Part shown: piece by piece, positions 5,990-63,576 of the stretch | How positions within the stretch are numbered: the first letter of the stretch is position 1 | Layout: the number at the start of each line of letters is the position of its first letter | Assembly: GCA_030264375.1 (NCBI GenBank) | Contig: JASCQW010000119.1 | Location: 9,334,685-9,398,684 of the forward strand | Reading direction: 5' to 3' | DNA length: 64,000 bases | DNA from: Carcharhinus longimanus | Taxonomy: Eukaryota | The notes under the pieces: generated by a model | The model's database searches: none | What the model was told of the DNA's origin: nothing | Seen by the model: only the letters and a program-made list of their open reading frames with translations | Translations under genes and position numbers: made by a program

Positions 5990-6607
5990 ATCGAGCTTAG
6001 CGTCCGTTGGAGCATTCTAGCGGGTTAAATGATTTTGCTTTGTTGTTATTAAAGAAAAGCCAAGCAGTAATTTGCAGGTGCGCTTATGGATTTAGTATGG
6101 AGGTGGGGGGTGGGTATTTTTCGTCTGTGGCAATTGGTGGCAAGGGAGTCAGGGGGCATGTCCATAAGCCATCAGAGCCTGGGCGGGGAGGGGTGGCGGG
6201 GTACGGAAGGGGGCTGTGAAGATGGGGTCGTCTGCCAGAGGGTTTAGGGGGCGCCATTGGGGTTGGCTTGTATGGGAGTTGCGTGGGGCAGGAATGTTCA
6301 GATCTCCGGTGTCTGTGGAGGAGAGCGTGGAATATTTTTGGCCCTCAGTTGTTTATTTTTGCAGCTAAGCTGCATTTTTGTGCTGCCTCGATGCATGCGC
6401 GGTTCTATGCTCCTGCGATATGATCTGCACGCTCTCCGGCTCATTAGGCTATACCCCCAGTCTCTCCAGTCTAGACACAGATTAGCTTTTATTTTCTCAA
6501 AGTAAGTTCATAAAGTTGGGCATTAGAACTCGCCGGAGAAACGGACCAACTCTATTTTTTTTTCAAGCTAACTGGAGACTGGGGCAAAATCTCGTAAATT
6601 TCCGCCA
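5990..6607. mobile_element. Probable non-autonomous DNA-transposon (Harbinger/MITE-like) end
   Basis: G-rich tract ending in TIR-like gtaaatttccgcc at an abrupt switch to AT-rich DNA. Family recognised from memory only. Confidence 0.35.
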
Positions 6608-6753
6608 GATATTTTATTGCATTTTGTGTGTACCATTGCAAGCATGAGTGGTGCACAGTTACAGACATGTTAAACTCTATCTGAAACTAAACAGATTTAG
6701 ACATAAAAAAAAAGTTTGCAAAAATGTGTGTTTCAGTCACGTTCCATACTCAC

Positions 6754-6789
6754 CTAATTGTTGCACCAATGTTTTGCATTCCCATAGTT
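6754..6789 (-). CDS. Microexon 19 (36 nt): [12 protein letters not shown]
   Basis: gtctgcactgcag|AACTATGGGAATGCAAAACATTGGTGCAACAATTAG|gtgagt. The donor shows the gene continues downstream. Confidence 0.92.
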   Translation of the reverse strand, partial: NYGNAKHWCNN

Positions 6790-9700
6790 CTGCAGTGCAG
6801 ACATATTTGTTTATTTTATAATTGAAGAGTCTTTGTTTATCGAAGTTGACAATTGATTCATCCATAAATGTTACCTAATATTTGGCCATCACAAAGTAGC
6901 GTCAGACAATGTGCTCCAATTTTGCGCTTGTTTTGCACATATCGAATTATATTTATCCAAAATAGCCCAAGACAATCCAGTGGCCAAACTACTTCGTTGT
7001 GTATGAGGCATAAACTTCCTCTCAGAGAATATCAATAGGTCCTTCATAAGATTGCAACGTTGTTGCTATCGGTAGGATTGCAGTTTATATTTAGGTTACC
7101 TTTTTCTTTGTCTGCCAACTTGTCCTCTATTAGGAGGCAAACAATATATAAATAATGCAATGAAATACAAGTTCCAAAGTACACATTTATTTCACTGTGC
7201 CGCGATTTGAGTTGTCAAGTGTCTTCTCAAGTGTTCTCTTTCGAGGAAACTTTGCCGATTATTAGAACAGCATGACGTTATATATTCACATTTTACTGAA
7301 ATATGTAAGTTAGTAACTTATTTGTTTGTTCACAAAAAAACAAGCAGCCAAACATTAGAGATGCTCGCAGTCACATCAAACGGTTTCTATTTCTGAGATA
7401 AAATGTGTCAACAGAACACATGTCTGCAATTGAGAAAGTTATAGACATTGGCATTTCAAATGACTCACCACATTCCATCAATGATTTTTCACATTGGGCA
7501 ATTTCTGGATCAAATTTAATATAACGTTTATTTTTTTTTCTAAGTTCAATAGATACTGTTCAATGATTCACGGATACGAAAGTTATCAAATGCTATAAAA
7601 TCTATTCGAAAAAAAATAAAACAAAGAAACACGAACATGGACGGCTGATGCAGCTGCCTAGAACTTGAATAAAAGAGACAACTGAGCAGAATAAATAACT
7701 CACTTATCAAAGGCAAAGCTACATTTTATGGTACAGTGAGTAGTGTCACAAAATCAAATTAAATTCCAGCAGGTTTATTTGGCAGCACGAGCTTTTGGAA
7801 CACATCTTTTTCATCAGATGTATGCAGGATTTGTTTCAACACCTGAGGAAAAAAAAATGTGCACTCAAATGATGAAGGAACCGTGCTCCAAATGCTCGTG
7901 CTACCAAATCAACGTGTTGGATTTTAATCTGGTGATGTGAGATTGCTTACTGTGCCTCCACCAGTCCAACGCCGGCCGCTTCATTTCCTGGCATTTCATG
8001 GTGGCCGCACAGCTGCATATTATCTAGGGTAATGAGCAATTTGCAATGCAAGGCGACCTAGTCACGGACACTTACATCTCAAGAATATGAAAAATAAGTT
8101 ATATAAAGCAAAAGCACTGGGCTGAAAGTCAAAATGGAGTGCCAATATGACAGCAATATTTTTCAATCAGCTCAATTCTAAGAATGGTGGGCGAAGGGCA
8201 CTTTGTCAATCGTTAGCAGAAACTTCCGACTGCAACAACCATAAACAGATTATTTTCATATTAAGCTGAACCTATATGCTATGTACTATGTTTTCAGCGT
8301 TCTGAGAGAGGTCAGACTGTATGCTTGAAATCATCAATTCCCTGCGCATCAAGGCTAATGGTAACGCAGTCCAGCACAGTCTGTTAAAGAGGGAATTATT
8401 GATTTAAGCTGCAAAAGCAAAAACATACGTATTTGCACTGTTGAATGTCTTCAAATTTCTTTCGGAGCTGAGCGCATTCACAATCCGTTCATGTACCCAA
8501 AATGCTGGAAAAGGCAGGGGATGAAATTGTTGGGGCATTGAGAGAAATATTTGAATCCTTACTGGCTGTAGGGGAGGTCCCAGATGACAGGGGAATAGTC
8601 AGTGTGGTTCCTTTGTATCAAAAGGGTAGCAAACTTTATCCAAGTTACCCAGTGTCCAGTTAACTCGAAAAAAAAGGCCAGTGAGCCTTTGGTCAGTGGT
8701 AAGGAAATTATTGGAGATGATTCTTCGAGACAGGTTTTACTCATGCATGGAAATAAGTGGAAATACATGTTAGATAGAGGTGAGGGTGATGTCCTGCCTC
8801 AATACTTTCTTCATTTTTTTGAGGAACTGTCGAAGATATTTGATGAGGGTAAGGCAGCGGACGTGGGCCCCATGGGCTTAGGTAAGGTGTTTAGAAGGTT
8901 CCTCATGGCAGACGGATACAGAAGGTGAAGTCGTGGGCTTATTAGTAAACTTGAAGCCGACACAAAGGTTGTTGGAATTGTGAATGGTACTGAGGGCCGT
9001 CGGAGGACAGTGCCGGATATAAATCAGTGGAGAATGGAGCGCAGAGATGGAGATGGAGTTTTATCCGGGAAAATGCGAGTGAATGTATTTTGAATTCCTA
9101 ATTGAGATGTTGAATACACAGTAAATGACTGAACCCTGAAGAGCATTGATAAACATAGGGATCTCAGTGTGCAGGTCACAAGTCGCTAAAAGTGACAATA
9201 ATGGTTGGGAAGGTCGTACAGAAAGCATCCGACATTCAGGCCTTCATTGGCCGGGATATTGAATTCAAAAAATGGCGATTCATGTTTCAAGTTTATAGAA
9301 CCACGGGCCGCGCTTGGAATGCAGTGTTCAATTCTAGTCGTCACGCTACCAGAATAATTTTAAGGGTTGGAAAAGAGAACAAGAGTTTGTTTAGTCGGGA
9401 AGGATTTACTATGAGAAGAGAGGGTGAACTTGTTTATTTCTTATTGGAACGGTGGAAGTTGAGGGCGGCCCAATAGAAGTCTACAAGGCCGTGAGGGATG
9501 GGGGCAGAGTCGACATTCAGAAGAATGGAAGAGCAGTTTACGGGAGCGGGGGGCGGTGGGGAGTGGGGCAGAAGTTTGTGTTACAAGGGGTAAGGCGATA
9601 AGATATTCACTAAGTCGTATTTTTTTTACATAGACGGTGAGGGTGTCTGAAACTTGAGGCTGTTGGAGAACGTGGGAACAGGTACCATAGTAACTTATAA

Positions 9701-12700
9701 GGGGCATCTTGAGAACTACATGGATAGGATGGCAGTAGAGAGATAATGTCAGCGGAAGGGCAGGGGTTTTAGCTCAGTCAGGCAACATGGTCGGCACAGG
9801 CTTGGATGGCCGAAGGGCTAGTTCCCGTGTCTTAATTTTCTTCTTTATTACTTGCATTGCTACTGTGGTACGCTAGAATTCAACGTACGATTTTTCTGAT
9901 TTTTTTTGGTACGGTTGTTTGGCATTGCGTTAGCTATTTGGTGTTTGCCGAATATTGTGCCGTTGTAAGGGTGACACTGAAGGCCTTCTGTGATGCTTCC
10001 TTGATTTGATTTTTTGTTGTCACAAGCAATAGTACACCGTGAAATGTTTTTTTTTGCATGCTGTACAGACAAAGCATATCGTTAATAAAGAAGGAAAGCG
10101 GAGACTATGGAGTGGCTACACTCACGGCTAGGTTGTGGAGAAATATCAAATTAATCCTCGAAAGGTCCAATTAAAAGTCTGATGGGAGGAGGGAAGAAAC
10201 TGTTCTTGAGTTGGTTGGTCCGTGACCTGAGACTTTTGCATCATTTTTTCCTCCTGACTGAAAAAGGTGGAAGAGCATATGTCGACGGATTATTAATTGT
10301 GCTGGCTGTTTTGTTTTCGAAGCAGTGGAAATTGTATACAGAATCAATGGGTGAGAGGTTGTTTTGCGTAATGGAATGGGTTTCATAGATTTTACACATT
10401 TTCTTTAAGCATTTTGAAGTTATACGTCGTCCGCATGAGCATTTGTTTGTTGCTTTAATTTTCCGTTGTGCCTTACAAAATCACGGATTATCGCGTGAAT
10501 TCATGCATTTTTCACGAACGCTGACATTAACCAGCTCAGAATTTCGAAATTCATAATATTGAATGGTTTACTTGTCATACCTTCGGTTTTGGCATCCAAC
10601 CTTGATTCTGATTGAAAGTAAAAAAAAACACATTTCCAAAGAATGTGAATTGAACGCAAGGCACGGGGAAGTTGGGGGGAGGGTGGGGTGGTTTAATTCC
10701 CTTATAAATGCATAAATTTGCCGAAGCATTGCATTTTTTTTTCATGGAAGAATACGTTTTGACAACGGCACGACAACACATTGACTGCACTGCTGAAATA
10801 CCATTTTTTGTTTCGGAACCGAAGCTTCTGAGATCCTTGTGATGGATCTCCAGATTATCGACACATAAGTTTGTAACATTTTTGTCTACAAAATTGCTAA
10901 CATACACTTAATAAGCTTAGTGGTATGTCAAAATGTTCCCGTAGCTTTGTAAAGGTAGTTGGAACATCAGCACGTTCGCCTGCGAAAGATGATCTTTTTA
11001 AGTAGAAGTGTTAGTTGATACTCGCCTAATTCGTTCATCAACTGTTTGCAGATGGCGATTTCTGTGTCCAGGCAAACCAATGGTATGATTAATTTCAACA
11101 GTCATTCGTTTAATTAGTTCATTAGCAGCATAATGTTTCAATGTGCTGAATTATTTACAACACATATAACTGTTAAAGTGTTTGTCATGCATATATTTAG
11201 GACTTGAATGGCACTGAACCAAAATGAGAGAATCTGTGGTTCAGTTAGCCGAAAACATAAAAAAAAATAGATTTTTGTTATAGACCATATGAAATAGAAA
11301 AGGGAAATCCTGAAATAGCAAACCGTCGACGAGGCTGAATTAGGTAAATAAACATTTTGCACATTGGGTGCAGTGTTTAGGTGGGCCGCATAAAGGCCTT
11401 TTCTTGAGGGCTACGGTGAGATCAAATGTCTCGAAGCCGTGAATCATACATTCGACAGATGCTATGTCTATACCATAAAACAATCAGTAACAAATTATAT
11501 TTCTGTTAAACGATTTGAGACAATGGGAAACACCAAACCCATGAATGTCCATGGACTAGGTAAGCAGTTGAGGATGGACTTCTCAAGGGCAATTAGGGAT
11601 TGGTAGGAGAACCTGACCCAAGAAATTATCATCGTCTGATCAGACAAATAATATGAAGCAGCAAGGCTGACATTCAGAATTGACTGAGCATATGGCATCA
11701 AAGTGTGGAAGCAAATCAAAACCAGTAATCGATGGCAATGGACATTTTGTCAGCAGCGCAGTCGCAGAGTAAGAACACCTTGCGAATTAATTATTTTTGC
11801 AACGACTCCACTGTGGGAAAAATCTGTTTCTATTATATCAGGTTCTTGGAGAAGTCCGCTTTGGAATCATCCCAATAAACGAACATCGTGTATTCACTGT
11901 CCACATGAGAACGGAGGGGAACTCGAATAACAATGCCGTGGTTGTTTTCTAGTTGGTTTCAGTAACGCATATAAAGTGTGTTAGATAATACAACAGTATA
12001 TAGGTAGATTGGAAAATTGGGCAGAGTAATGGCANNNNNNNNNNNNNNNNNNNNNNNNNNNNNNNNNNNNNNNNNNNNNNNNNNNNNNNNNNNNNNNNNN
12101 NNNNNNNNNNNNNNNNNNNNNNNNNNNNNNNNNNGATGAAATTAAATAGGAACAAACGCAAGATGATGCAATTTGGTAGATCCAGTTGAGGGTTGGAGCT
12201 AAATAAAAAATAACTATCAGAGCAATCAGGAGCATAGACACACAGGGGACCGGGAATACAGGTCTACAGATCCTTAAATGTGGCAGCACAGGTGGAAACA
12301 TCGTGAAAAACACATATGGCATGTTGATATTTATCGATGGGGCATGGAGTATAAAAGTTGGCAAATTATGTTATAGTTGTATCAAATATTGGTTCGGCCA
12401 CATTTGGAATACTGCATTCATTTCTGGTCACGATACTGGGATTGGTCTCCCTGGAAAGACGGGGACTTCGGGGCAACCTGATTGAAGTTTATAAAGTCGT
12501 GAGCTGTATAGTTAGGACAAGGAGATGGAAGATTTTTGTTTGTTTTCCCGGAGCTTAAATGACAAGCACAGGGAAGCATAATTTCAAGCTAAAGACTGAA
12601 TGGCTCAGTTGACATCTGCAGTTTTTTTTAACACAGAGGATGATGGCGCCTCAGAATGCACTGCCATGTGACGTGGTTGAGGCAGTTAAGGTAGTCACAT

Positions 12701-15700
12701 TTATGGCTTACCTTGATAGGCATATGAATAAACTGGGAAAAGAGGGATGCACGTTGCTTGTTTAGATAGTTAAACGTGGTCGGTACAAGTTTCGAGGGTC
12801 GAAGGGTCTGTTCCTGTGCTGTACTGTTTGCTGTTATGTGTTAGTTACGCTTTTCATTCCTTAAAGATGGGGACTCTGTGCAGAAGAGGTCCCAAATTTA
12901 TTGTGCTGGAATAAAGATCTATTGCTCCATGAGTTAATTTGATATAGTTTAATTGTTTTATCGGAAATTTTTGCCTACAGACCTTAACGTTTCCACGTAA
13001 ATAATTGCAAATCTAAATAGTACCGCGAGGTCAATCGATCAGTGCTCAAGACTATTTTTTGTTTTCACAGTTGAATCCTAGTTATATTATGATAGGCGCA
13101 AATTGCTTACATTCGCTGACAGACATCGAATTTACCCTTCATTTCAGGATCGGAACTCTAACACTCAAATTGCAATTAATCAGTTTTAAATGTTTTGAAG
13201 GGGCAACATGGAGAGACGCATCAAATGCTTGCTTCAGTTATAGATAAAGGAGACATTTATGCCTTTGTGCAAGTGGTGGCTGAAAGTGGTTTGCAAAATC
13301 ATTGATGAAACATATTGAGTAAGAATGGGTTAGCAGTTCAATTTTACCTAATTCATACCATTGCATATTTTACTTTGTTACCTTTTTCGCGTTCTTCCAG
13401 TTTTTCTTCTGTTGGCAAAGAAACATTTTCAAACAATCTCCACTTTCTCGTGAATTTCACTTTAATTTTACACTTAGAGTAAAAGCTATTATTTTCGTAC
13501 GTAAAGTTAATCTCAATAATTTCATTTTGATTCGGAGACAAAGAGAAAAAAATCGACTTGTTCGCCTCACTAATATCAGACGTCATAAAAATCATAGTAT
13601 GAATTTTGGTATTTCGAATCAGAGTTTATTCCGAACATTCACTATTGGTTACTGCACCTTAAGTGCAATATCTGCTGTGCTGCGACAATGTCCAGANNNN
13701 NNNNNNTCCAGAATTTATATTGGCATCGCACAGCAACACACTGAGTTGTGCACACACAATACTTGTATGATTGAACGTGGTAAAAGATGGATGAAACACT
13801 TGTGGTCCAAGAAGCCAATGACAACTAATTCAATGTACGTATTGGCACGAACGCTGGTCGGTAAAACACAACTGCCTTACAAGGAACTTCACACCGACCT
13901 TCACAACTGACAAGGATCCTGGCACTATTGTTCAGGGACAAAGTTGCGAAACCTTCACCGCATCCTAAACTCGTTCCAAAACGTAGCCAAGACCATCTGT
14001 TTCTTGTCAATTGGATAGAAGCAGGTCTTCGGATTCAATGTACAATTGCCGTACTGATGGATATTAATGTCTCTGTGATTTTTCAGTCACATTTGAAAGC
14101 CAATGTTGAATAAAATTCCTGAGAGTGTAAATGTTGTTTTGTTAAAACTAGAAATATATTTGTTCCGTGCTACTGTGGCCACATAATAACGGATCGCTTG
14201 TTCGAAAGCTTTCCACATATGTTTACGTTTGATCCTAAGAGACAGTGTGCACCTTTGAGTACGGATCCCTCATTTTTTTTCTGAAGAATAATGATAGTCA
14301 CATTTCTGAGTATTGGACAGTTGTAGTATTCCGCATATATTGACTTCCTTCCTACTCCACACGACCTTAATTGAACAATATGGATATGACCGGCTTGACT
14401 TTTTCACCAGATTAAAAGAAAACAAATCTCACCAGTGTTCAGAAGTTCATACTTTGTAAAGTAATTTAACAATGTAATGCATTCCACTAATGTTGTTAAT
14501 TTGTATAACATCTGGGAAACGCATAATAGAGTAATGTTCATTGCACGTGCCTCCAGCGAATGTTGACGGGAAAGTATGGATGTGGTGTACTCTGCTGGAA
14601 AAAAAAATGACGCTGATAAGAATTCTACTCCAAATGCCAGCCATGTTTTGTGGTTGTCCGGTTTTGCATTGTCTAGGTGAATTACAAATATTTCAGTTTG
14701 GCCACGCGGTCGGGGAATGTGTGCAATTATGCATTGCAATTGTTGGCGCTCCTGTCTCTACCAGTCATTGGAACTAGGCAAATTAGTGCATTTTTGAAGA
14801 GGCATTTGTAGAAGATCTTTAGGTTCCCGTGGTCATACACCGTTTGCTTTGGTGGCTGCCTTGTTTCGTCTAGGTCAACCTAAGGAAATGTCGATTCTTG
14901 ATCCGAAAGTGGGCAGAACGCGAAAAAGAAAATGTTTTCATGCGCATTTTTTCCTCACTAGAAATAATTTGCACCATAACTGAACTCAAAGTCTGGGAAA
15001 TACATGGACACTCCGACTGTCCGCCTTACTTTCGCCATCTTTCATTACCATGACCATTTTCTGGAAACAACACTATTCCATATATGCGGTCCTGGTGCCT
15101 GTAAAACCTATTATATTAAAGAATTCAGTGCGTTTTTTTTTACATTCAGGTTTACCCAAGGCTAGTTTGTTGTCTCAAACTTGGCAAATAACTCCATATG
15201 TTCATGAGGTTGTCTGGGCAGCGTCAGAAGACAAGCATTGCCTTTGCAAATACTGGTGCGGATTCTGCTGCCGGGTTGCCTGATTAGTTTTAAACGTTCA
15301 CATATTTTTACCGCTTGTTTCACTTAGAGTTTGATATAACTTGCCTATTTTGAAGAACACTTCGGTTTGGTATTTGCCCAATGAATTGCAGGGACATATT
15401 GACATTGTTTCCACAAATGAATAGCAGACAGAGTCCAAAACGGCACGTTGTTGAGGACCTAAAATTAACGAATATCTACTGCATCTTGATTAATTGCTCC
15501 ATTATCAGTGATGATCGTGCAATGGATACAGCTTTTAAAACGGCATTTTAAATCATGATGTATTTCTCTGATTAACTCAGTCGGAACTGGAGATGGTTTT
15601 GTAACGCTCTGCACGATTATACACGAGAGGTTCGATGGATTGCCTCTGAAATGCAATTTACCCCAATCTCGTGCAAAAACTGGCTCCCCGCCCAACAAGC

Positions 15701-41731: not shown

Positions 41732-41764
<33 letters not shown>

Positions 41765-53700: not shown

Positions 53701-56700
53701 TTCACTGAAATACATTTCCCTAATTGGTATCCCTCTCACATTCGGGAGTTTTATATCTTTTTCATTTAACATAGAGGTAGTTAAATCAAGAAGTGGCAAT
53801 TGTGGCACAATAATTATTTTCTGATTTCATGTGAACAGAAGAAGTAGTTAACTAATGATATAGCAACTGCTGTAGTGTAGGTGTGTTCATGGTTAATACT
53901 GCTGACTTATGAAACTGGACATTTATATTCAAATAGTACCCAGGTTAGTTAAGACAGTTTGAATTTTACAATGTTAAGTAGGCATCCAGATATAGACATT
54001 ACAAAAGTAGATACTGCTTACATTTCAAATTGTGAAATGAAAACGGAAAACAATGCAACAATTGCATTTGAAAATGTTGTTACAGCACAAAAAAATGGTA
54101 ATTGCAAACATTATATTTCCTATATGTTAATACCTTGTTGTGACTGGGTTCTGATACAAACTGCATGGGAAAGAGTTTAGCCATTGTCTGTGATCCATTT
54201 CACTGTACGCTACAGGATCAAAAGGAGTATCTGTGGAGAGAGAAATAATGCCTACAACAATCATTTAAGAAAAACCATGGCAATAGTTGTGTTTAAATGC
54301 CTAGTTTTGCTGACTGTGATCATGCTGGAAATTTCGGTCAAATTATGCATCGAAAACAGTTGCAGGTTGTAAATAAGCTCTGATCTGGGAGCTGAGATCT
54401 GAAGCGTTCTGTCTTGGTCAGATCAGGNNNNNNNNNNNNNNNNNNNNNNNNNNNNNNNNNNNNNNNNNNNNNNNNNNNNNNNNNNNNNNNNNNNNNNNNN
54501 NNNNNNNNNNNNNNNNNNNNNNNNNNNNNNNNNNNNNNNNNNNNNNNNNNNNNNNNNNNNNNNNNNNNNNNNNNNNNNNNNNNNNNNNNNNNNNNNNNNN
54601 NNNNNNNNGGTGGAAAATTGTGGATAAAAAGGGAGGTGAATTATTTATTTGGCAGCAATAACTTTAAGAGAACAGCTATCACAACAAGAATTGTACCCTG
54701 AGAGACACTTAAGAAACAAAAAGATAAATTCTACATCGACAATATTTCTTGGTCAATGTGTTCCTAAAATCGGTAGTATCTATTTTTAATCAAGTTTATA
54801 GAGTTGATATACAGTTGAAGTTAAACGGTCGTTTGAGAGTTAAAGTTCAGTGGAGAGTTGGTGTGTTTCATGTGTGCATGCTTGAGTTTATACTATAATT
54901 GTTAAATAAATAAATAATTGATTTACTGTTCGTGTTTGTCTCGTTAAACTGGACTGCTTGAAAGCGTTTGAACTAAAGTTGTATTACAAAATCAATAATT
55001 ACAGATTCAAGACATCACTGCAGCATTTGCTCAATATTGTGTTGCTGGAACAAACATTTTCAGCTGTGTCATTATTTACATGTTTTCCAAAATAAAATTG
55101 GAAGTTGGGGTGTGCGCACATGACTGCACAATTTTCCGCACCTGTCGTAACTGCTCCGATATTGATGAAGCCTGTGTCCAAATGCTGGACGATCTGGACA
55201 AAATTCTGGCTTTGGCTGACAAAAAAAAACAAGTCACATTCTCACCAAACATGTGTCAGGTAAGCATAATTTCAAATCTTGGAGGATCTCCCCTAAGCGA
55301 TGATATTCACTGAAGTTGCCATTGCAGATTCCCGGCTGTCAAACTCCAGGTCGGTAACCACCATTCACCAGACACAAAACTAGATATTGCTCGTAATCAT
55401 CATAGTTACCACAAAAAATGTCCACAATCTGACAGACACATTTCAAGTGTTTAGTGGATCAATCTTCATTTGCCTGGTCGAGTCGGCTCCGTGTCCTCTC
55501 GGTTAGCTTGATAAAGCAGCTGACATGATTGCCACCACACCCACGATCCACTTACAATGTGCAATGGCAGCTGTTTGCAAGATGTACAAGATGTACTGAA
55601 ATAACTCACCATGGTTCAGCAGGGAACACATTCCAAGCCCGCAATCAAGAATATACGGAAATACAAAAGAAGCCGGTGCTTAAGGAAACCGACAGCTGTA
55701 GTTTCCCCTCCAAATTATTCATCAAGCTGACTGGAAATATGTAGTTTTTCATTCACTGCTGATATGTCAAAGTCCTTGATTTCCTCCGTAACATCATGGC
55801 TGGCTTACCTATACTTTGCTTTATGCACACGTTCTCAAATGCAATTGATCGTCACCAACTGATGGGTATCCAGTTGTGAGCAAAATGTTTGCCCATCCAG
55901 CGAAGCCCACGTCTCATAAGTAATATATACAATAATAATAAAAAAAGTATTTCATAGTGTACAGTTTAAATTGCTACTCTCTGAGGCGACGACGAATGAA
56001 GATCTTCGTGGCACACTACTGCTTCACATTGCCATGAACGCAGGTTATATTGTTTTCATGTCTGGCTAGATGTGCGACGGTATCATTTCCGTAAACGATA
56101 AAGAGCAAAAGTAAACATTTTGAGATAGAGACACATTATGGGTTTCTAACTAATTTAACGTGATGTCTTAGACAATACTTCAAATTTAGCCATTGCATTG
56201 GTTTACAGAGTACGCTGTAGCAAACTTTATGGCAGCATGAAATGGCCGACTGATCGTGTTTTCTTGAGCATAACAAACGAAACTTTATTTGAAAACGTTG
56301 TTACGAAATCATGGACTTTTTTTTGTGCAGAGAAATCGGACTGTAATTTGGGAAGAGCCTGATTTGTAATTGCCTTGAAGCAGTGCGCTCCCTTTATTAG
56401 AAGCTCCGTCCCATAACAACGTAACGCAAGTTAAATTTGACGCGCATCTCGCAGTATGCATTTCTAAATTGAAAATAAAACATTAAGTCCTCTCACTTAA
56501 TTTTCTGTTCGCAGCGTTGCAGTCTTCCAACTCTGCAAGTGAAGAAATTGCACACATGTTTTATGATTACAACTTTTTATTCACTGCAATATCTCATGTG
56601 TGCGAGTTCGAACGTTATATATTGTAATGCTGTTGTACCCAGATTACTGTTGGCAACAAATCATATTGATAAACCGCAGATGAAATAAAATGGCACAATT

Positions 56701-59700
56701 TGCTAAAACTTTGTCTGTTATTCCCAATTATTAACTGGAAGAAAAACGCTGGCGAAAATAAGGTTATTGAAACAAAGCCAAATAATATACACTACCATTT
56801 AAAATAAGAGAGAAAAAAAATGTCATGCATGCAGGTTCTTCACTACTGTATTTACGTCTGAATTTAAAGAGTGGTTGTTGAGTTGTGTTTTAGTCGACCA
56901 ATTTGCTGAAATGACAGACGAGGAACATGAGGTGTTGTCATTTACCCGTTTCTTTTTCTTTCAACTTCTCCTCTTTTGAAAGGAAAATGATATTCCATTT
57001 AAAATATTCTTAAATATGTTCATTTACTGTCATATATGACAATTCAAATTCCTCCAATCCCCAATATTTTATTGGCAATAGGTTGAAGCATAAGTCAGAA
57101 ATCTAAAGCATACTTTGTATAAATTCTGCCATTAGGACATTGTCAGTTTTTTTTTAACAATACTTCGAAAATCATGCAATGGATAGAATTCAGCAATGTT
57201 TTGCAAAATTCTCTTTAGCTAATGGATTATATGTATTGGGAAGAAATAGGTAAGTGGATTTAAGTTGACTATCAGGTATACTTGGATTTTCACAAGAATT
57301 GGTAAGATATTTTGTATATTGTATAATTGGATAAGAGAATTTTTCGTGTGGAATGTCATGATACTGTGGATACATGTTTATTTCTCCAGCAGGATGAATA
57401 AAGTCCGGCAACAATTCTCGTTCTGTTCGTATTATAAAGTTTTAATGAGAATAGTGCCACATAGCTCCCTGTCGAGGCCTGAATAACTTAAATATATTTT
57501 AATAGTTTGGATGAAGAGAACCAATGTATATCAGTTACTTTTGCCGTTTTCCTTAGGAAATACATAACCTAATTGATGAAGGGGATGGGGGGATCCGTAA
57601 AATAGATAACAGAAGGAAACTGAGTAAGCGTACATTCCAAAGATTAGGTGAAACGTCAGGAAATGTGAATATATCAAGGACGGCATGAAAGACAACAGAG
57701 AAATTTTCTTTTAATTAAGGGAGACTTGTAGAACTCTGTATTGTGAAGATGTACGGTACAGAATCACAAAACGTTGATATATACATGGCATTACTAATTG
57801 TATTTTAAAATTTCATTGAAGGAATGTTTGACTTACCGTCTAGGCCGCCATTAATAGTCGTTTCATACTCGCTTGAACATGTGATAATGAGCTCTTACTA
57901 TGATCAGCGGCATGACATATCATAGATTATCTGGGAGGATTTTTTTTTCCAGTGAATGCGGCTGAATGTTTTGTTTTCAAATTCGATTGTGAATTCCTTG
58001 GAGGGAGCAGTCATTTTGATACTACTGCCTTCTGCCGACTGCCCATATGATTTGAGGTTACAATAATCAGGCATTTGACATGTGCTACCGTACGATTACT
58101 GGCGAACTAACATAATGCTACTTGTAGAGGTTGCACACTATTGCCACCAATGGCTATTAATTGAGGGACTGGAAGTTTGCAGACTGGTTAGAAAACAAGC
58201 GTTTTTGATTTTTATTTGATGTTGCTAAGCCTGTCAAATGTTGCTGGTGTTCGACACTTCCATGAAAGAGCTGAGTATCACATCATGTGGATATTTAAGG
58301 CGGTTTTCTGACTTCTACAATCACGGGATTCAGGCAAGTTTTACCAATTTCTCTACCCAGTGTAAATATATTGCTTGGCCAGTTTGGATTTGTTTAATGC
58401 TAATCCAATGTTATTAATGCTGCGTGATTTACTTTTTGTAGCACCAGTAATTATCAATTGTGCTGATGTTCTCACTTATTATAAAAACGCAACACAAACG
58501 TCAGCTGCCGCGTACAATCCCAGGTCTGATTATCGTCCAGATTTTGATGACTTCAAGTGGCACTGAGATTATGTTGTGCCTTTGGACAAACATACGCTCT
58601 GATGGTCGAATTTAAGAAGTTTAGCGCTAGATAGGATGCTGTTCTGACTATATTGTATTGTTGCATGAACTACCTATTTCAGAGTGTCACCAATTTTTGC
58701 ACAAGCCTTCAAATGTTGATATGAAAACTCTTCAGGGTCCGTGGAACTGTAATTGTTTCTGTTCATTCCTGGTGCCATGTGGTGCACACAACTTTGTCCC
58801 ACAACCAGCTTTGCTTGCAGCATTTTTTGTTTCCTAATTGATAGGGCTTTTCAAAGCGTTATTTAAAATACAGCTCATGTCGTTTCGTCCTTTGAGGCAC
58901 ATATAGGCCAAACCTGGCAAGGGTGACTCATTTCTTTGTCTAAAGTGAAAGTGTGAGCCAGAGGGATTAAAACAAATGTTAACCTTTGACACAAATGTCA
59001 TTTGGGTTCCAAATGTATATATTTTTTAAATAACGCATCCTCTATATAATGTATCTCTTCAGCAATATCCAGATTTTTAACTCAATGACAATTCTTTTTT
59101 TTTCATCAATGAGATAAATTCATGTTGTTTTTGCTTGCAAGAAAATTGAAATGTGAAAATCAGTACGTTGCTCTTCAGGTGGTTATTAAGTGTGAAATCA
59201 AGGCTTCTTTTTTGTCTTATTAGCAAGTTTAAAGGCAGTGAATATGTGCATTTTTTTTTCAAGTTTCCGGGGTGGATAGCAAAAGGGAAGTTCCATTTTG
59301 GCAGGAGTTTATATGTAAACATAACTGCATAAATGATATTCTCTCTGAATGTCATTGAATCATATAAACCCCGCAGTGCAAAAATAGGCTATTCGGCTCT
59401 TTGACTCTGCACCAACCACAATTCCACCCAGCCCCTTTCCCCATATCTCCACATATTTACCCACTAATCCCTCTAATGTACGCAACCTGGAACACTAANN
59501 NNNNNNNNNNNNNNNNNNNNNNNNNNNNNNNNNNNNNNNNNNNNNNNNNNNNNNNNNNNNNNNNNNNNNNNNNNNNNNNNNNNNNNNNNNNNNNNNNNTT
59601 CCCCATATCTCCACATATTTACCCACTAATCCCTCTAATGTACTCAACCTGGAACACTAAGGGACAACCTAGTATGGCCAATTAACCAAACCCGCACATC

Positions 59701-62700
59701 ATTGGACTGTGGGAGGAACCTGGAGCACGGGTTAATATGCAATATGTGCTTGCTCCTCTGAGAAAGTAGTTAGTATGGGAAACTATCCTTCTCAATAGAA
59801 CTGAAGGCTGGGTCACTGAAATAACAGTTAGGCAGCTATTGATAACGAATGGTCAATGGAAACAGACAGGAACGTACAGTTGACACAAAATTTGTATCAG
59901 CCACAATTTCATTAAGGGACAGAGCTGAGGTTTCTCGGAAATTAAAGCTGAAACGGACGGAAACAATGGAGTGGTTTTATTGCAGCAAAGTATTACAACC
60001 ACATATGCTCAATAGAACACTTTGAAAAGCTTTCGAGACATCTATTTGGTTGAGATCTGGGACGTGATGGCTTGCATTTCTAAAATCTCTATGCAGACTT
60101 CGACATATCACATTACTTCTATTACACACAAAAAAAGATAAATTTCTTCCGAGGGAGGACATCTGTTTTCTCACCAAAATCGTTCACCGAAGCTTGGCAT
60201 GCGGATAAATCTGCTCAAGCAAAAAGCAAAATCACAGTTGTCGAACTTCAGTTGACATTATTTTATTGTGTTTGCTTATTAGAATTAGCCTTAAAAAGTT
60301 CGTATGTATATCGTGGTATGCAGCCCTCGTGCTGTCGAACAATTACTGAACATCTTTATTTGTTCTCAGGAGATGGTGTCAAACATCATTATTGACTGTT
60401 GTCTGTCAACTGCTTTTATAAATAGCCACAACACATGTTTAATGAAAATTGGGTTGCAGTCATTCGACACAGCGACAACGAACGATCTACAATATATTTC
60501 CGCCTCATAAGTGTGCACTAATTGATAAGGTATTCCCAGTTATGCAGTGTAATTGGTATCAGTTAAACGTGCTTCTGGAGGGACATTTAGGATGCACCAC
60601 AGCGTTTTTTCAGTGGGCATGAATTGAATTCCAATAGGTCTGATCTTCTCCTTCCCTACAAATCGCCCATGCCAGCAAGGAATCATCGAACAAAGTTTGC
60701 AGACTGCTAGACTTCTAATCCATTAACATATCCTTATTTAAACATTGCTGTCATCAGCAATTTCTGTTCTACTTGTCGAAGCGCTTACAATTGTGTTTGA
60801 TTAATTCAATTCGGACGAAAAAAGGAACATTTCACACTAACTACATTGTGTTCAGCGAACGATCAACCCTTCACCTCACTGAAGCCGGAATTTAATTTTA
60901 ATTGTGACAAATGCGTTACATTCTTGGAGGACACATGGATTTTATAGTCTTGCTACCAATGACTGCAGACCACATATTACTCAGACAAGGTTTACTGTAG
61001 TACGAGAGTTCTAAATGCTTTGTCATTCATTAACTTATTTCGTCTCATTACGAAACATGTAATGTTCACCAGTTGTCGAGCTGCACCATTTAAGTGCTGA
61101 TCAAATGAACAACATTTCCTTACAACGTAGCCAGCGATGTCAGGAAAATGACCACCTTATGAAATCAGTGGTCCTACTAAAATGACATGTTCGGTTTGAA
61201 TCAAAGTGAAATCAATTATCCAGGTGGCATAATTACCCTAATACGTGAAACTTTCTCCAACCGTTCAACCAGGTAATTCATGGGCATCAGTTCGTAACAG
61301 TGCTACCTGCTGTCCAAGTGGATGTTTTAGTATGATTCTCTCTCCCTCTGCATTACCATCATTTGAAACATGATGCTGAAAACACATTTCATAGATCAGT
61401 CGTCAAACTTACGCGTGATAATTAGCGTCAGGTGTATTGTCAGATATTTTCCTTTACCATGTCATGTTATTTGAGCATTTCTGCAGTGTTATCATGAACG
61501 TATTTTTACCATGGATATTACTGTCATCAGTGTTGCCGACTGCATCTTCTTCGAAGTTATTTCAAATATTTTAATTTCAGCTTAATTCCTGAAATCAACA
61601 AAGAGAAAAGCACAAACCTTGTTTTAATTCATCTAATGCTTCAGCTGGTGGATTTAATTGAAAGGAGCGTGAGTTTTTAACAAGAACGCAATGTTTAACT
61701 GCATGATCGTCGTTAGTCATTAGATGAAAATGATGCACTCAGGAGGCACTATTCCAGTAAGTAAGTGAACGTTGTGTGAACTTATTTTTGCGAAAATCGC
61801 AAATGTATGCATCAGCAAACACCGAGAATGCATGTTGAACGTTACAATAACTAATCTTAAGTTTCCAAATTTTTCTTACAAAATGAACGTCCAAAATGAA
61901 GGATGCGCTTACATTGTCACATTCTGTTATTAAAGATTAGACGTTGCCAAGTTTGTTTTTATTACATATTATTCCAAGAAAAAAAAACTGAATTGTGAAT
62001 CTAAAATGCCGAGTACAAAGACGCTGGCACATGGCTATTCAGAACACATCGCCTGAATCTACAGAGTGAATACGATTAAGAGTGCGACAGACGTGATACA
62101 GAGTAAAGTACATCATCGCTTAAATAATTGGGAAAGTTCAATGACATGTTGCTTAACTCTGTTTCACTTTGCAGACGATGGTACGTGACCAAACATTGAT
62201 TGCGTTTGTGTTCAATCCCGAATGTTTTCTTTACACTTATTATTGCTTGCTCTTATGGATTGCAACATAAAAAAATGCTGTATATGAGGCAAGTGTACAG
62301 AGGCACTTAATAAATAAACATCAATGTCTCTTGAATTGTAAGCTTTAGAATTCCAGGAACTAGATGTACAATCTTTACTGACGCTAATTAGCACCGGTGC
62401 ATTCGGGAAAAAAAACAAGAAACGGATTGATGGACTGCAGTTAGATTGGGCAAAACATGAAGTACTTTCAAGTGAGGATGAAAAAAAAATGCTCCCAGAA
62501 TTTCAGGTCCGGGCACNNNNNNNNNNNNNNNNNNNNNNNNNNNNNNNNNNNNNNNNNNNNNNNNNNNNNNNNNNNNNNNNNNNNNNNNNNNNNNNNNNNN
62601 NNNNNNNNNNNNNNNNCACTTTATCTTTATATAATTTCTACTCGATTCCATGTACAATGTAGAATCAGGGCATAAGATAATATTTCGGATGGTTCTCGGT

Positions 62701-63576
62701 CTGTGTGGAATGCATTGCATGCAAACTAAAATTTGCCGACCATTCCACTGCTGCTTAATCGGTTCGGTCAGAGTTTCAAGTGTGAGCCAATAAATGAAAT
62801 GTGCGATATAATGTCACAACTTTAAAGATTTTTTTTGTTAATACATATCACAGCATGAACGCATTTCCAGACTTCAATTTAATCTCAAATCCGATTGCAA
62901 TATTTCATTTAGGTGTTGCCTGCACCGTGGATTTTCTTTGTTCAATCATTGTAAGTGTGTATTCTTCGTCGGTTTACATTCTCTCAGAGCTTTCCACGAA
63001 GCATTTTTGCCATCCTGCCTCCGCTCTTCCCCTTTTTTGGCAAATCTTGTCTCCCTTTCTCTCTCCATATCTCTATGACACTCAATGAGTTCAGCTAAGA
63101 TTCTCACGTAAGCTTTGCTCATTCCTGCCACAAAGGGACATAGGCACTCAACACAAAACAAAAACGGGACATACATAAGCTCCTTGGTTCCTCAAGACTG
63201 TTCTTCAATTCTATATTGCGCTGGCTTATCCAAAATCGCAACACCATACGTCCGAGATTTCCCCTTGCTCCCTAACATCTTTACAGTTGAGAAATCTATC
63301 TATTTCATGTTTTAAAATATTCAGGGTTGTTTCCTTCACAGCCTTCTGTGATATTTCATGACGCCGACTCCCCACCGCCCGAGTGACGAGCTTCCTCATC
63401 ATCCAATGACGTAATGGCCTGCCTCACATTCTGACAATAGCCACAGGCAAATGACACATCGTGCTAATAAGCAGTCCCAGCAATGATCTTTATGATTGAA
63501 CAATATAAAATATGAGGAAAACAATGCACAATCCTCTTACCACATTTTTTATTCGCGATGTTGCAATTCTCCAACT
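6754..63576 (-). CDS. Partial multi-exon gene: 19 alternating 36/27-nt phase-1 microexons encoding a 21-aa-repeat, Cys-containing coiled-coil rod (about 201 aa seen; N- and C-termini not found)
   Basis: Ten 36-nt and nine 27-nt segments flanked by AG and GT/GC, in unbroken alternation. The joined frame has no stops and no Pro, and all ten 36-nt exons have Leu/Ile at position 2 and Cys at position 5. Confidence 0.92.
7100..7126 (-). CDS. Microexon 18 (27 nt): EDKLADKEK
   Basis: tttgcctcctaatag|AGGACAAGTTGGCAGACAAAGAAAAAG|gtaacc. Confidence 0.9.
7469..7504 (-). CDS. Microexon 17 (36 nt): [12 protein letters not shown]
   Basis: aatttgatccag|AAATTGCCCAATGTGAAAAATCATTGATGGAATGTG|gtgagt. Confidence 0.92.
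7731..7990. mobile_element. Penelope-like terminal hairpin (inverted repeat) relic
   Basis: Arms at about 7731-7796 and 7890-7955 are imperfect reverse complements. Same family as 27165-27358. Confidence 0.65.
8500..9850 (+). mobile_element. Decayed CR1 LINE
   Basis: [17 protein letters not shown] (CR1 FFEEVTxxxDEGxAVDV), IGRDIEFK, and tail ggccgaagggctagttcccgtg. Confidence 0.85.
10130..10400 (-). mobile_element. Rex1/Babar-type LINE 3' fragment
   Basis: gggaagaaactgttcttgagt resembles the Rex1-like 3' fragment at about 46190-46240. Confidence 0.5.
10581..10607 (-). CDS. Microexon 16 (27 nt): ESRLDAKTE
   Basis: ttttactttcaatcag|AATCAAGGTTGGATGCCAAAACCGAAG|gtatga. Confidence 0.9.
11026..11061 (-). 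CDS. Microexon 15 (36 nt): [12 protein letters not shown], with non-canonical GC donor
   Basis: tgcctggacacag|AAATCGCCATCTGCAAACAGTTGATGAACGAATTAG|gcgagt. Confidence 0.85.
11975..12845 (+). mobile_element. Decayed CR1 LINE (contains a gap)
   Basis: [20 protein letters not shown] and tail gggtcgaagggtctgttcctgtgctgta. Confidence 0.88.
13382..13408 (-). CDS. Microexon 14 (27 nt): EEKLEEREK
   Basis: ttctttgccaacag|AAGAAAAACTGGAAGAACGCGAAAAAG|gtaaca. Confidence 0.92.
16780..16930 (-). mobile_element. HE1/V-SINE fragment
   Basis: ctgtgggaggaaactgcagtacc...aacgcaggcagacacg, the reverse of the V-domain seen in intact copies. Confidence 0.55.
17407..17442 (-). CDS. Microexon 13 (36 nt): [12 protein letters not shown]
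   Basis: gtctgccatctag|ATTTAACCACATGTAAAGCTATTTTAAAAGAAACGG|gtacgt. Confidence 0.9.
17735..17758. repeat. Poly-C tract next to a short gap
   Basis: Uninterrupted C run. Confidence 0.95.
17870..20310 (+). mobile_element. Second LINE family (CR1/L2-group RT), split by a younger CR1 insertion
   Basis: [16 protein letters not shown]...PLTK at about 18050-18120 resumes after 18880 with acaatgtggaaaa...caggacaaatccaaccc. Further RT-like pieces follow: [22 protein letters not shown]. Confidence 0.8.
18127..18880 (+). mobile_element. Relatively young 5'-truncated CR1 (HER1-like) LINE
   Basis: [43 protein letters not shown]; [16 protein letters not shown]; 3' tail repeats ctatgttgtatgttgtatgttcta. 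Confidence 0.95.
20770..22800 (-). mobile_element. Highly decayed RTE-clade LINE
   Basis: [10 protein letters not shown]...[18 protein letters not shown]...KC matches the RTE RT motif KILARILLNRL...ESQCGFR...TxDMIF...QEKC. Confidence 0.7.
22950..24880 (+). mobile_element. Rex1/Babar-clade LINE, decayed
   Basis: Recognisable WFKxIIxVPK, LND..PVxxTSTIMKxFE, [17 protein letters not shown], NYSSAxNTIIP, [28 protein letters not shown], and a tail ending aataacaatccaatcgaatc. Confidence 0.88.
24925..25425 (+). mobile_element. Young CR1 LINE (RT core plus 3' end, gap inside)
   Basis: [42 protein letters not shown] and tail gggccgaagggcctgtttccc. Confidence 0.95.
26287..26388 (-). mobile_element. 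HE1/V-SINE 5' (tRNA-derived) head; rest lies in the gap
   Basis: Reverse strand has an A-box-like ggtggcacagtggttagca and B-box ggttcgattccc, followed by ctgtgtggagtttgcac. Confidence 0.88.
27165..27358. mobile_element. Penelope-like terminal hairpin
   Basis: Near-perfect inverted arms of about 50 bp at 27199-27248 and 27308-27356. Confidence 0.7.
27352..27632 (+). mobile_element. HE1/V-SINE
   Basis: B-box ggttcaattcc, V-domain ctgtgtggagtttgcacattctc...gggtttcctccgggtgctccggtttcctcccaca, and CR1-like tail gatgggctgaatggc...tctgcact. Confidence 0.9.
27640..27775 (-). mobile_element. CR1 3' tail fragment
   Basis: ggaggccatttggcccctcaagactgctctgc...ctatatctaatttcttc. Confidence 0.6.
27780..28110 (-). 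mobile_element. tRNA-derived SINE of a second family (possibly SacSINE1/DeuSINE-like)
   Basis: Reverse B-box (gggattcaaacccagg on +) and core ggaaggaaatctgccatccttacccggtctggcc. Family name from memory. Confidence 0.6.
28378..28705 (-). mobile_element. Near full-length HE1/V-SINE
   Basis: tagaaaccctacagtgcagaaggaggcc ... ggaaaccggagcacccggaggaaacc ... ggaatcgaacccggg ... gtgctaaccactatgccaccgtgcc. Confidence 0.92.
29335..29975 (+). mobile_element. 5'-truncated CR1 LINE
   Basis: [26 protein letters not shown]; [11 protein letters not shown]...[16 protein letters not shown]; tail tgtaatgttctaagttcta. Confidence 0.95.
30646..30672 (-). CDS. Microexon 12 (27 nt): EEKLKDKEN
   Basis: atatgtcttcag|AAGAAAAACTGAAAGACAAAGAAAATG|gtaata. 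Confidence 0.9.
31047..31082 (-). CDS. Microexon 11 (36 nt): [12 protein letters not shown]
   Basis: cctatgtgatccag|ATTTAGCCTGTTGCCAAAACTTGTCAAAAGATTTAG|gtgagt. Confidence 0.92.
31968..32480 (+). mobile_element. 5'-truncated CR1 LINE
   Basis: [17 protein letters not shown]...; tail gctctatgctctat. Confidence 0.92.
33439..33465 (-). CDS. Microexon 10 (27 nt): EEEIGEIKD
   Basis: ccaacttcaacag|AGGAAGAAATTGGTGAAATTAAAGACG|gtatgt. Confidence 0.88.
34230..34410. mobile_element. Penelope-like hairpin relic (second subfamily)
   Basis: aaagtgctggagagtctc ... gagattttccagaattt inverted arms around ttcgagtctggatagcccttcctcagaatctggacgaag. Confidence 0.5.
35477..35512 (-). CDS. Microexon 9 (36 nt): [12 protein letters not shown]
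   Basis: ggttctcttaaag|CGTTGGCAGATTGCAAGTCTTCACTGAAGAAGTTAG|gtaaca. Confidence 0.9.
38518..38810 (-). mobile_element. HE1/V-SINE, decayed
   Basis: gtgcagaaggaggtcattcgg ... ggaaacccacacagacacagggagaatgtgcaggctccacacagac. Confidence 0.85.
39790..40800 (-). mobile_element. Decayed copy of the second LINE family, with a CR1 tail inserted at about 40140
   Basis: Reverse similarity to the 3' end at 20000-20310 (aatatatttccaagtcaagg, ggagctggcagctggtggtgttc). Confidence 0.55.
40141..40214 (-). mobile_element. Young CR1 3' terminus with (aagaacat)n tail, running into a gap
   Basis: ataagaacataagaacataagaaataggagcaggagtaggcca; the same sequence recurs at about 49525-49583. Confidence 0.85.
41080..41600 (+). 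mobile_element. Decayed fragment of the second LINE family
   Basis: cagccagaagtgcccagtggatgat... and aacaggacaaatcctacccaaccaatta resemble 17900-18980. Confidence 0.65.
41716..41773. repeat. Compound (GT)n(GC)n(GT)n microsatellite
   Basis: tgtgtgtg...tgtgcgcgcgcgcgcgcgtgtgtg... Confidence 0.97.
42017..42043 (-). CDS. Microexon 8 (27 nt): DGKLREKDE
   Basis: ttattttcaacag|ACGGAAAGTTAAGGGAAAAAGACGAAG|gtactt. Confidence 0.88.
42621..42656 (-). CDS. Microexon 7 (36 nt): [12 protein letters not shown]
   Basis: ttcacccggtgcag|AATTGAACATGTGCAAGGAATTGGTTGCCGATTTAG|gtgagt. Confidence 0.92.
43797..43845. repeat. Imperfect (CA)n microsatellite
   Basis: acacacacacgcacacacacac... Confidence 0.95.
44400..45030. 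mobile_element. Two decayed CR1 fragments (minus about 44400-44830, plus 3' end about 44850-45030)
   Basis: cagaactgaaggccatactc is the reverse of an EYxxQFW-like motif; tail gaagggcggagtggcctgattctgcttc. Confidence 0.55.
45705..46540 (-). mobile_element. Rex1/Babar LINE 3' end, interrupted by a CR1
   Basis: [27 protein letters not shown], and the tail ttgatttattattgtcac on the far side of the CR1. Confidence 0.8.
45880..46152 (+). mobile_element. Young CR1 LINE fragment spanning a gap
   Basis: [30 protein letters not shown]; tail gggccgaagggcctgttctgcgctgtaatgttctatg. Confidence 0.93.
47309..47335 (-). CDS. Microexon 6 (27 nt): IETERETRE
   Basis: attgccttcaacag|TTGAGACAGAACGCGAAACAAGAGAAG|gtaggc. 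Confidence 0.82.
49525..49583 (-). mobile_element. CR1 3' terminus running into a gap
   Basis: aacataagaacataagaaataggagcaggagtaggccatctagcccttggag. Confidence 0.85.
50380..52200 (+). mobile_element. Long decayed CR1 LINE (gap and unrelated insert at about 51515-51870)
   Basis: [39 protein letters not shown], and a 3' UTR ending ggagggccgaaggacatgtccc. Confidence 0.85.
55050..55930 (+). mobile_element. Decayed copy of the second LINE family
   Basis: [12 protein letters not shown]...[22 protein letters not shown] parallels 19430-19570 ([10 protein letters not shown]...ANKWQVTF). Confidence 0.75.
56497..56532 (-). CDS. Microexon 5 (36 nt): [12 protein letters not shown]
   Basis: ttcttcacttgcag|AGTTGGAAGACTGCAACGCTGCGAACAGAAAATTAA|gtgaga. 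Clear paralog of exon 1. Confidence 0.9.
   Translation of the reverse strand, partial: SWKTATLRTEN
56946..56972 (-). CDS. Microexon 4 (27 nt): EEKLKEKET
   Basis: tttcctttcaaaag|AGGAGAAGTTGAAAGAAAAAGAAACGG|gtaaat. Confidence 0.9.
57220..57800 (+). mobile_element. Very old CR1 fragment
   Basis: YLDF-like tacttggattttc and WI-like aattggataagag motifs. Confidence 0.4.
59355..59730 (-). mobile_element. HE1/V-SINE spanning a gap
   Basis: catatttacccactaatccctctaat ... cacatcattggactgtgggaggaacctggagcac. Confidence 0.85.
60175..60210 (-). CDS. Microexon 3 (36 nt): [12 protein letters not shown]
   Basis: tttgcttgagcag|ATTTATCCGCATGCCAAGCTTCGGTGAACGATTTTG|gtgaga. Confidence 0.9.
61618..61644 (-). 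CDS. Microexon 2 (27 nt): AEALDELKQ
   Basis: aaatccaccag|CTGAAGCATTAGATGAATTAAAACAAG|gtttgt. Weaker splice sites, but size and position fit the array. Confidence 0.78.
63541..63576 (-). CDS. Microexon 1 (36 nt): (E)[11 protein letters not shown]
   Basis: gattcattacag|AGTTGGAGAATTGCAACATCGCGAATAAAAAATGTG|gtaaga. First residue assumes an upstream exon ending in G. Confidence 0.9.

Follow-up and report, generated by a model that had tools for sequence, protein, structure and literature searches.

The window, a stretch of 64,000 nucleotides from Carcharhinus longimanus (C119:9334685-9398684, in a 2.68-Gb genome), carries part of a long array of microexons, and the exons of the window encode a predicted coiled coil with a cysteine at one heptad d position in every repeat of 21 residues. 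The array passes both window ends and is followed on the same strand by an intact B30.2 exon. We tentatively favour the reading that a giant gene gives rise to a cytosolic rod of two parallel, in-register chains, in which the core cysteines would normally be reduced and would cross-link only when oxidised.

A splice-site and profile scan detected 19 phase-1 microexons on the minus strand between positions 6754 and 63576 of the window, ten of 36 nt (long type) and nine of 27 nt (short type), which alternate strictly throughout. From the high to the low coordinates, the long exons are found at 63541..63576, 60175..60210, 56497..56532, 42621..42656, 35477..35512, 31047..31082, 17407..17442, 11026..11061, 7469..7504 and 6754..6789. 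Each encodes a cysteine at repeat position 5; the exons at 63541..63576 and 7469..7504 have a second one at position 12 and that at 31047..31082 has a second one at position 4, and the exon at 56497..56532 is the only one with a final A. The short exons are found at 61618..61644, 56946..56972, 47309..47335 (the weakest match, with Glu at position 16), 42017..42043, 33439..33465, 30646..30672, 13382..13408, 10581..10607 and 7100..7126. All 19 exons are flanked by AG and 18 of them by a GT donor; the exon at 11026..11061 has a GC donor and borders the one GC-AG intron among the GT-AG introns of the array. The introns between the exons measure 310 to 13,203 nt. When read as spliced, the 19 exons give 201 codons free of stops, composed of 42 Glu, 29 Leu, 29 Lys, 13 Cys, 2 Gly and other residues but no Pro, so that the original prediction of no Pro and only two Gly was right.

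The window also contains 13 N-runs and, in its introns, dispersed repeat families (e.g. at 18239-18470, 29352-29576 and 45873-46150), which we take to be LINE-like. DNA contigs of two other organisms were about 96% identical to window 6400-18000, with difference tables dominated by repeats. No exon-exon joint was seen among the displayed alignments of four sequencing runs to the same interval, and no RNA runs were listed as matching window 6400-8000, a query that is mostly intronic.

The residues that the original prediction had assigned to the repeat were found as described. Cys occupies position 5 in all ten long exons, Leu or Ile occupies position 2 in 10/10 and position 16 in 8/9, and position 12 is mostly Leu (6/10, with Cys in exons 1 and 17, one Phe and one Thr). 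The proposed register of six core positions, with a at 2, 9 and 16 and d at 5, 12 and 19, also holds, but the core is less regular than it implied, as positions 9 and 19 are often polar or charged: d-position 19 is Lys or Arg in 6 of the 9 repeats and a-position 9 is Asn or Ser in 3 of the 10 long exons. Hydrophobicity has its maximum at a period of 3.5 (power 257, against 83 for the top of 5000 shuffles), and 12 of the 13 cysteines of the window are at d, where they had been placed.

The cysteine pattern was controlled with a Cys-blind ranking, in which position 5 was unscored and each exon was excluded from its own profile. Among 224 open 36-nt candidates the ten window exons took ranks 1 to 10 with scores of 12.2-18.9; the next candidate scored 5.4 and the best of 219 candidates on the opposite strand 2.1. 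In the remaining 214 candidates, Cys was present at position 5 in just 11. Because this leave-one-out scan ranks the same ten exons at the top without seeing the cysteine, the pattern is neither chance nor circular. The naive p of ~1e-13 for the enrichment of Cys in the top ten is overstated, since the exons have a common ancestry. The microexon array with its periodic cysteines at d is confirmed as a real feature of the DNA.

The extent of the array was followed through 280 kb to the left and 520 kb to the right of the window, with the window numbering extended so that negative values lie left of base 1. An iterated, Cys-blind scan, with the top score on the opposite strand as the threshold, kept 34 of 1699 candidates of 36 nt and 46 of 1939 candidates of 27 nt between -249 kb and +345 kb. 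The count of about 80 is approximate, as hits feed their own profile, a few are possibly false, at least one known exon was missed and exons of 21, 24 and 30 nt are left out of it. The array spans 584,072 bases, of which 73,226 are N, at about 9.09-9.67 Mb of C119, and the window holds about one tenth of it. Outside the window the strict alternation of long and short exons is interrupted in places, at gaps or missed exons. The 80 exons encode 822 residues (at least about 820), which corresponds to ~122 nm with cysteine layers 3.1 nm apart. The coiled coil that had been predicted is supported, but the 30 nm estimated for the rod is the share of the window alone and the full length is at least four times greater.

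Within the array a cysteine zone, whose bounds were picked after the data were seen, extends over about 9.19-9.50 Mb of C119 (+162 to -147 kb). Here 22 of the 25 detected long exons have Cys at position 5; the exceptions are Tyr, Trp and Ser, and neither Ala nor Leu occurs (0/25). In the flanking zones the same position is Leu in 8 of 9 long exons. The d-position 19 in the short exons of the zone is Lys or Arg in about half of the cases (15 Lys, 2 Arg).

Downstream of the array, an intact B30.2 (PRY/SPRY) frame is located on the same strand at C119:9085612-9086157 (-249072 to -248527; SPRY E 1.8e-15). The SPRY domain is followed by a stop and forms the C-terminus, and it is the single SPRY exon on the array's strand within the span (145/145 candidates scored). 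The named close relatives of this exon are all from cartilaginous fish, the nearest being that of the catshark (Scyliorhinus canicula) with 76% identity. In the catshark RefSeq model XP_038668997.1, the SPRY exon is joined to four of the microexons at the end of the array, three of which are 88-89% identical. The cysteine zone is absent from this ortholog model, whose N-terminal part is unlike the array and looks mispredicted. Searches with the SPRY exon returned one ortholog (4 matches among 321 candidates; 1 of 21 in a second search), and the homolog searches gave no database protein containing the cysteine zone. No first coding exon was detected when the interval from +333 to +352 kb was scanned for donors and ORFs. 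The array and the SPRY exon likely constitute one giant gene with a single predicted transcript.

Longer open frames were also observed in the introns. A GC-rich frame of 187 codons on the minus strand at L009:5986-6546, beside a 1.7-kb gap, had no Pfam match; its start resembles an RNA-binding protein of the MEX3 type, and it could be a nested gene, a retrocopy or misplaced sequence. Three others are at L051:7947-8630 (minus, 228 codons), L042:3972-4688 (minus, 239 codons) and L031:2304-3362 (plus, 353 codons). Two of the three are near assembly gaps, and the frame at L031:2304-3362 had no Pfam match.

The age of the exon copies was estimated from their flanks and silent sites. Homologous intron flanks (72-87%) were found for the pairs -68315/-130060, -103791/-106249 and 156705/134655, and judged by these flanks the pairs are recent internal duplications that would have lengthened the rod. 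Since flank homology was detected in just these 3 pairs among the 25 zone exons, most of the exons are old copies. Their third codon positions are 36% identical, compared to 29% expected from composition, against 84% for the first two bases of the cysteine codon (17 TGC, 5 TGT); other core columns are 21-23% identical. As silent sites are near saturation, the cysteine has been kept by selection, and the saturated third positions together with the few flank-homologous pairs show that its presence is not explained by recent copying from a founder exon. The 36+27 unit recurs in the neighbouring paralog on the plus strand (160 kb), where Cys was present in 16 of the top 19 long exons of a Cys-blind ranking (2 Arg, 1 Val in the others), in 1 of the next 7 and in 32 of 413 overall.

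The cysteine might be retained for packing, since the Leu at position 2 is about equally conserved (residue identity 0.71, against 0.77 at position 5 and 0.13-0.25 elsewhere). In the same cytosolic rod, Cys would then serve as a hydrophobic core residue of small size by which packing and flexibility are tuned, without a special role of the thiol. The Leu at position 5 of the flanking zones would agree with this, as would Cys249 of Hv1, which is reduced in cells (PMC2990768). We consider this explanation unlikely, although it survives best among the alternatives, because core columns 9 and 12 swap Leu, Val, Ala, Ser and Thr whereas position 5 of the zone never takes Ala or Leu, and the cysteine recurs in paralogs although their SPRY exons are only ~30-43% identical.

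The pairing of the chains was analysed by counting attractive and repulsive g-e' pairs. Parallel and in register, each side had 10 attractive pairs and 1 repulsive pair, a balance with p=0.0009 when compared to shuffled e positions, and the sum over both sides was 20/2. The summed values were 10/15 at a stagger of 7, 8/15 at 14, 12/9 at 21 and 16/3 at 42. Parallel registers are thus favourable only in register or at multiples of 21 residues, where Cys is opposite Cys, and this geometry can bring the core cysteines to face each other as the original prediction assumed. The best of 41 antiparallel registers reached 9/3, not far under the parallel 10/1. On these charges, a parallel in-register dimer with Cys facing Cys is the predicted arrangement. 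A dimer is favoured because Lys occurs at every third d layer: according to PMC13580157, such extended polar residues in the core can be solvated in a dimer, which is often not so in a trimer. For the preference of disulfides for a over d or the reverse, no statement was found in the portions of the literature that were searched.

The lysines also weaken the metal site in a trimer that had been suggested for the cysteines. Zn, Cu or Cd could be bound by three thiolates in a trimer, or by two with neighbouring groups in a dimer, and the rod would store or sense the metal or be stabilised by it. Thiols in the cytosol would be available for this, and the in-register charges are compatible with a parallel trimer too. 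Designed trimeric peptides have Leu at a and d and core Cys sites, and the Leu residues at both positions in the array resemble this design. Metal binding is nevertheless improbable in our view, since Lys or Arg at d-position 19 (6/9 in the window, about half of the short exons in the zone) disfavours trimers (PMC13580157), and a site in a dimer would lack further ligands, as neither a His nor a second Cys is conserved in the vicinity.

To locate the rod in the cell, accompanying domains were searched with our own profiles for IgV, IgC, RING and B-box, each of which finds 12-34 untrained stored proteins. In 864 kb, a region that includes assembly gaps, none of the 20,714 open frames matched with a better value than E 0.04. 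The best values were E 0.5 for IgV and 1.8 for IgC (13 and 12 untrained proteins found as controls), 0.04 for RING, on the other strand, and 0.098 for B-box. PF22705 had no match on C119 at 6-11.5 Mb (57/57 candidates scored) and PF00643 none near the cluster among the 150 of 277 candidates that were scored. A convincing membrane or Ig exon was not found on the strand of the gene, and the 17 kb to its head-to-head neighbour, with one 100-N gap, had no Pfam match over the cut-off in 42 of the longer frames among 86. Among the relatives with a coiled-coil N-terminus, three of four have no hydrophobic leader and start polar or directly with the coiled coil; the Leucoraja (skate) model P0155 has a hydrophobic N-terminus (KD 2.93). 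A membrane-like segment, defined as a 19-residue stretch above KD 1.53, was found in none of 11 relative models. In butyrophilins the B30.2 domain is cytoplasmic and comes after the membrane segment (PMC8813856, PMC4046983), and the heptad tails of butyrophilins and BG proteins are cytoplasmic as well (PMC8813856, PMC4046983, PMC5938342). Given these locations, the negative searches for Ig and membrane exons and the leaderless relatives, the rod is likely cytosolic, and the B30.2 end together with the same observations places its cysteines probably in a reducing environment.

These findings speak against the analogy to the tetherin ectodomain that had been drawn for the cysteines. If the rod were secreted or exposed at the cell surface, a permanent, tetherin-like ladder of interchain disulfides would fit the geometry and the hydrophobic leader of the Leucoraja model, and a short signal-peptide exon may be hidden at the 5' end of the array or in N gaps. 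With no Ig or membrane exon found and most annotated relatives without a signal peptide, such a ladder is unlikely, and we rate it as quite improbable given a B30.2 end of the kind that is cytoplasmic in butyrophilins (PMC8813856, PMC4046983), the polar or coiled-coil start of 3/4 relatives, the 0/11 models with a membrane-like segment and the 17 kb between the head-to-head genes, where a single 100-N gap is present and 42 frames had no Pfam match over the cut-off. Very improbable is the absence of a single live gene, with the array divided among several genes, or the locus in decay and its exons not spliced to each other any more: the cysteine zone has no database protein and gaps could conceal another terminal exon, but splice sites, phase and open frame are preserved in 19/19 exons of the window, the intact SPRY frame has 76% identity to that of the catshark, and a single SPRY exon is on the strand in the span (145/145 candidates scored).

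In the reading that we favour, the cytosolic two-chain rod with conditional cross-links, two chains would zip together parallel and in register to a coiled coil of at least 120 nm. Every third d layer in the middle part of the rod, i.e. every 21 residues, would be a cysteine pair that is kept reduced in the cytosol. Oxidation, for example in oxidative stress or terminal differentiation, could then introduce interchain disulfides about every 3 nm, which would make the rod stiffer or lock it. Ligands would be bound by the two B30.2 domains paired at its C-terminal end, whose distance would be set by the number of exon pairs. In Hv1, Cys249 is described as a cytosolic coiled-coil cysteine that can be cross-linked yet is reduced in cells, with no redox change during the respiratory burst (PMC2990768). 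A lockable ladder therefore need not be used.

Related genes were found in the same genome. Five close paralogs of the SPRY exon are on C119 at 6.3-11.3 Mb and one is on C81, and at least five of the six related SPRY exons on C119 have Cys-type microexons upstream. Further members were noted at C81:92-94.3 Mb, inside a large TRIM/butyrophilin cluster. Genome-wide, the Cys-exon pattern had 70 matches (17 in the reverse control); 29 of them are in C119:6.5-10.5 Mb, each followed on its own strand by a family SPRY exon, and C81 has 4 at 92-94 Mb. The 5' end of the array approaches +335 kb, and a second gene of this type starts on the opposite strand near +350 kb. This head-to-head neighbour (L037:6362 onward, plus strand, +350 kb to beyond +577 kb) has 36- and 27-nt exons and, between +462 and +492 kb, nine consecutive exons of 21 nt. 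Its probable terminal exon is the SPRY exon at C119:10.68 Mb, which would give it a length of about 1 Mb. With the rod of a paralog as a query, homology was detected in its own cluster only (1 of 6381 candidates), and for such a rod the ESM Atlas gave no feature match but generic long helices. The AlphaFold model of the catshark paralog P0164, which has a low confidence (pLDDT 54, pTM 0.32), showed long helices and a beta domain. Between the two 5' ends there is a 380-nt inverted repeat (L036:5975-6354 / 6560-6939, 84% complementary, 205 nt apart); its interpretation as duplicated first exons was dropped since it overlaps a common repeat.

A midpoint-rooted tree was calculated from 45 B30.2 domains (7 from this genome, 7 top single-domain matches, 11 Ig-bearing and 20 RING/B-box-bearing), leaving out 21 of 49 scanned rows without Ig, RING or B-box and the other SPRY exons of the genome. 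The 14 family rows formed a separate clade with a support of 100/100, outside the butyrophilin B30.2 group, and the domain of the gene was sister to that of XP_038668997.1, also at 100/100. The named members are from catshark, little skate, electric ray, basking shark and chimaera, and RefSeq calls them TRIM39-like, TRIM69-like, TRIM58 and A33-like. Pfam detected SPRY/PRY only and neither RING nor B-box in five relatives, and these names are misnomers. The shark gene belongs to this cartilaginous-fish clade with its microexon rod, and no RING, B-box or Ig was found for it. RefSeq isoforms of the relatives are distinguished by short blocks inside the chain; several of these blocks are exactly 9 residues long, which fits the skipping of 27-nt exons. 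In the freely accessible literature that was searched, the family is not described: heptad microexons (BG genes) and B30.2 tips are known separately but not in combination, and the main text of two shark genome papers does not contain 'B30.2' or 'SPRY'.

Taken together, the array, the SPRY exon, the cysteine zone and the cluster are linked in one genome, and a multi-megabase gene cluster is exposed in which annotation sees only short 'TRIM-like' fragments. A free, very long rod would be a third B30.2 architecture beside those of TRIMs and butyrophilins. As a natural coiled coil with a selected cysteine at every third d layer over ~25 repeats, it could serve as a model for redox- or metal-switched rods. 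A wider proposal, which we regard as doubtful, is that cartilaginous fish have a cluster of giant genes (~0.3-1 Mb each) for 100-nm-scale rods built from microexon pairs, with a thiol ladder zipped by oxidation or metal and a B30.2 pair at the tip; they would form a family of length-tunable, redox-switched fibres or sensors that annotation has missed because of the exon size.

Among known systems, butyrophilins (BTN/BTNL) likewise end in a B30.2 domain that comes after heptad repeats (PMC8813856, PMC4046983). They have Ig domains, a membrane segment and few heptads, whereas in the shark array neither Ig nor membrane segment was found and there are more than 100 heptads. Chicken BG proteins have a long coiled-coil tail that is encoded by small split-codon exons (27-37 exons of 21 nt), varies in length with the exon number and contains a conserved cysteine (PMC5938342). 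This tail cysteine is described there as outside the core, in contrast to the periodic d-layer cysteines of the shark array. The BG proteins have IgV and a membrane segment but no B30.2 domain, whereas the shark array has a B30.2 domain and no Ig was found. The exon unit is 21 nt in BG and 36+27 nt in the array, and a run of 21-nt exons of BG-like size is present in the neighbouring paralog; this BG-like exon design in sharks bears on the origin of the heptad-exon tails of butyrophilins and BG.

TRIM proteins with B30.2 share with the shark array a coiled coil and the C-terminal position of the domain, but they have RING and B-box, of which none was found in five relatives or in 864 kb around the gene. 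The coiled coils of TRIMs are short and antiparallel. The ectodomain of tetherin (BST2) is a parallel coiled coil with core cysteines that are able to pair, as is proposed for the shark rod. Tetherin is short and extracellular, with an N-terminal membrane anchor, a GPI anchor and three irregular cysteines, whereas the array has at least 22 periodic cysteines and a B30.2 end, and no anchor was found. The C-terminal coiled coil of Hv1 resembles the proposed rod as a cytosolic dimer with a cysteine placed for cross-linking and reduced in cells, but it is a short channel segment of an unrelated family with one such cysteine (PMC2990768), compared to the ladder of the shark rod.
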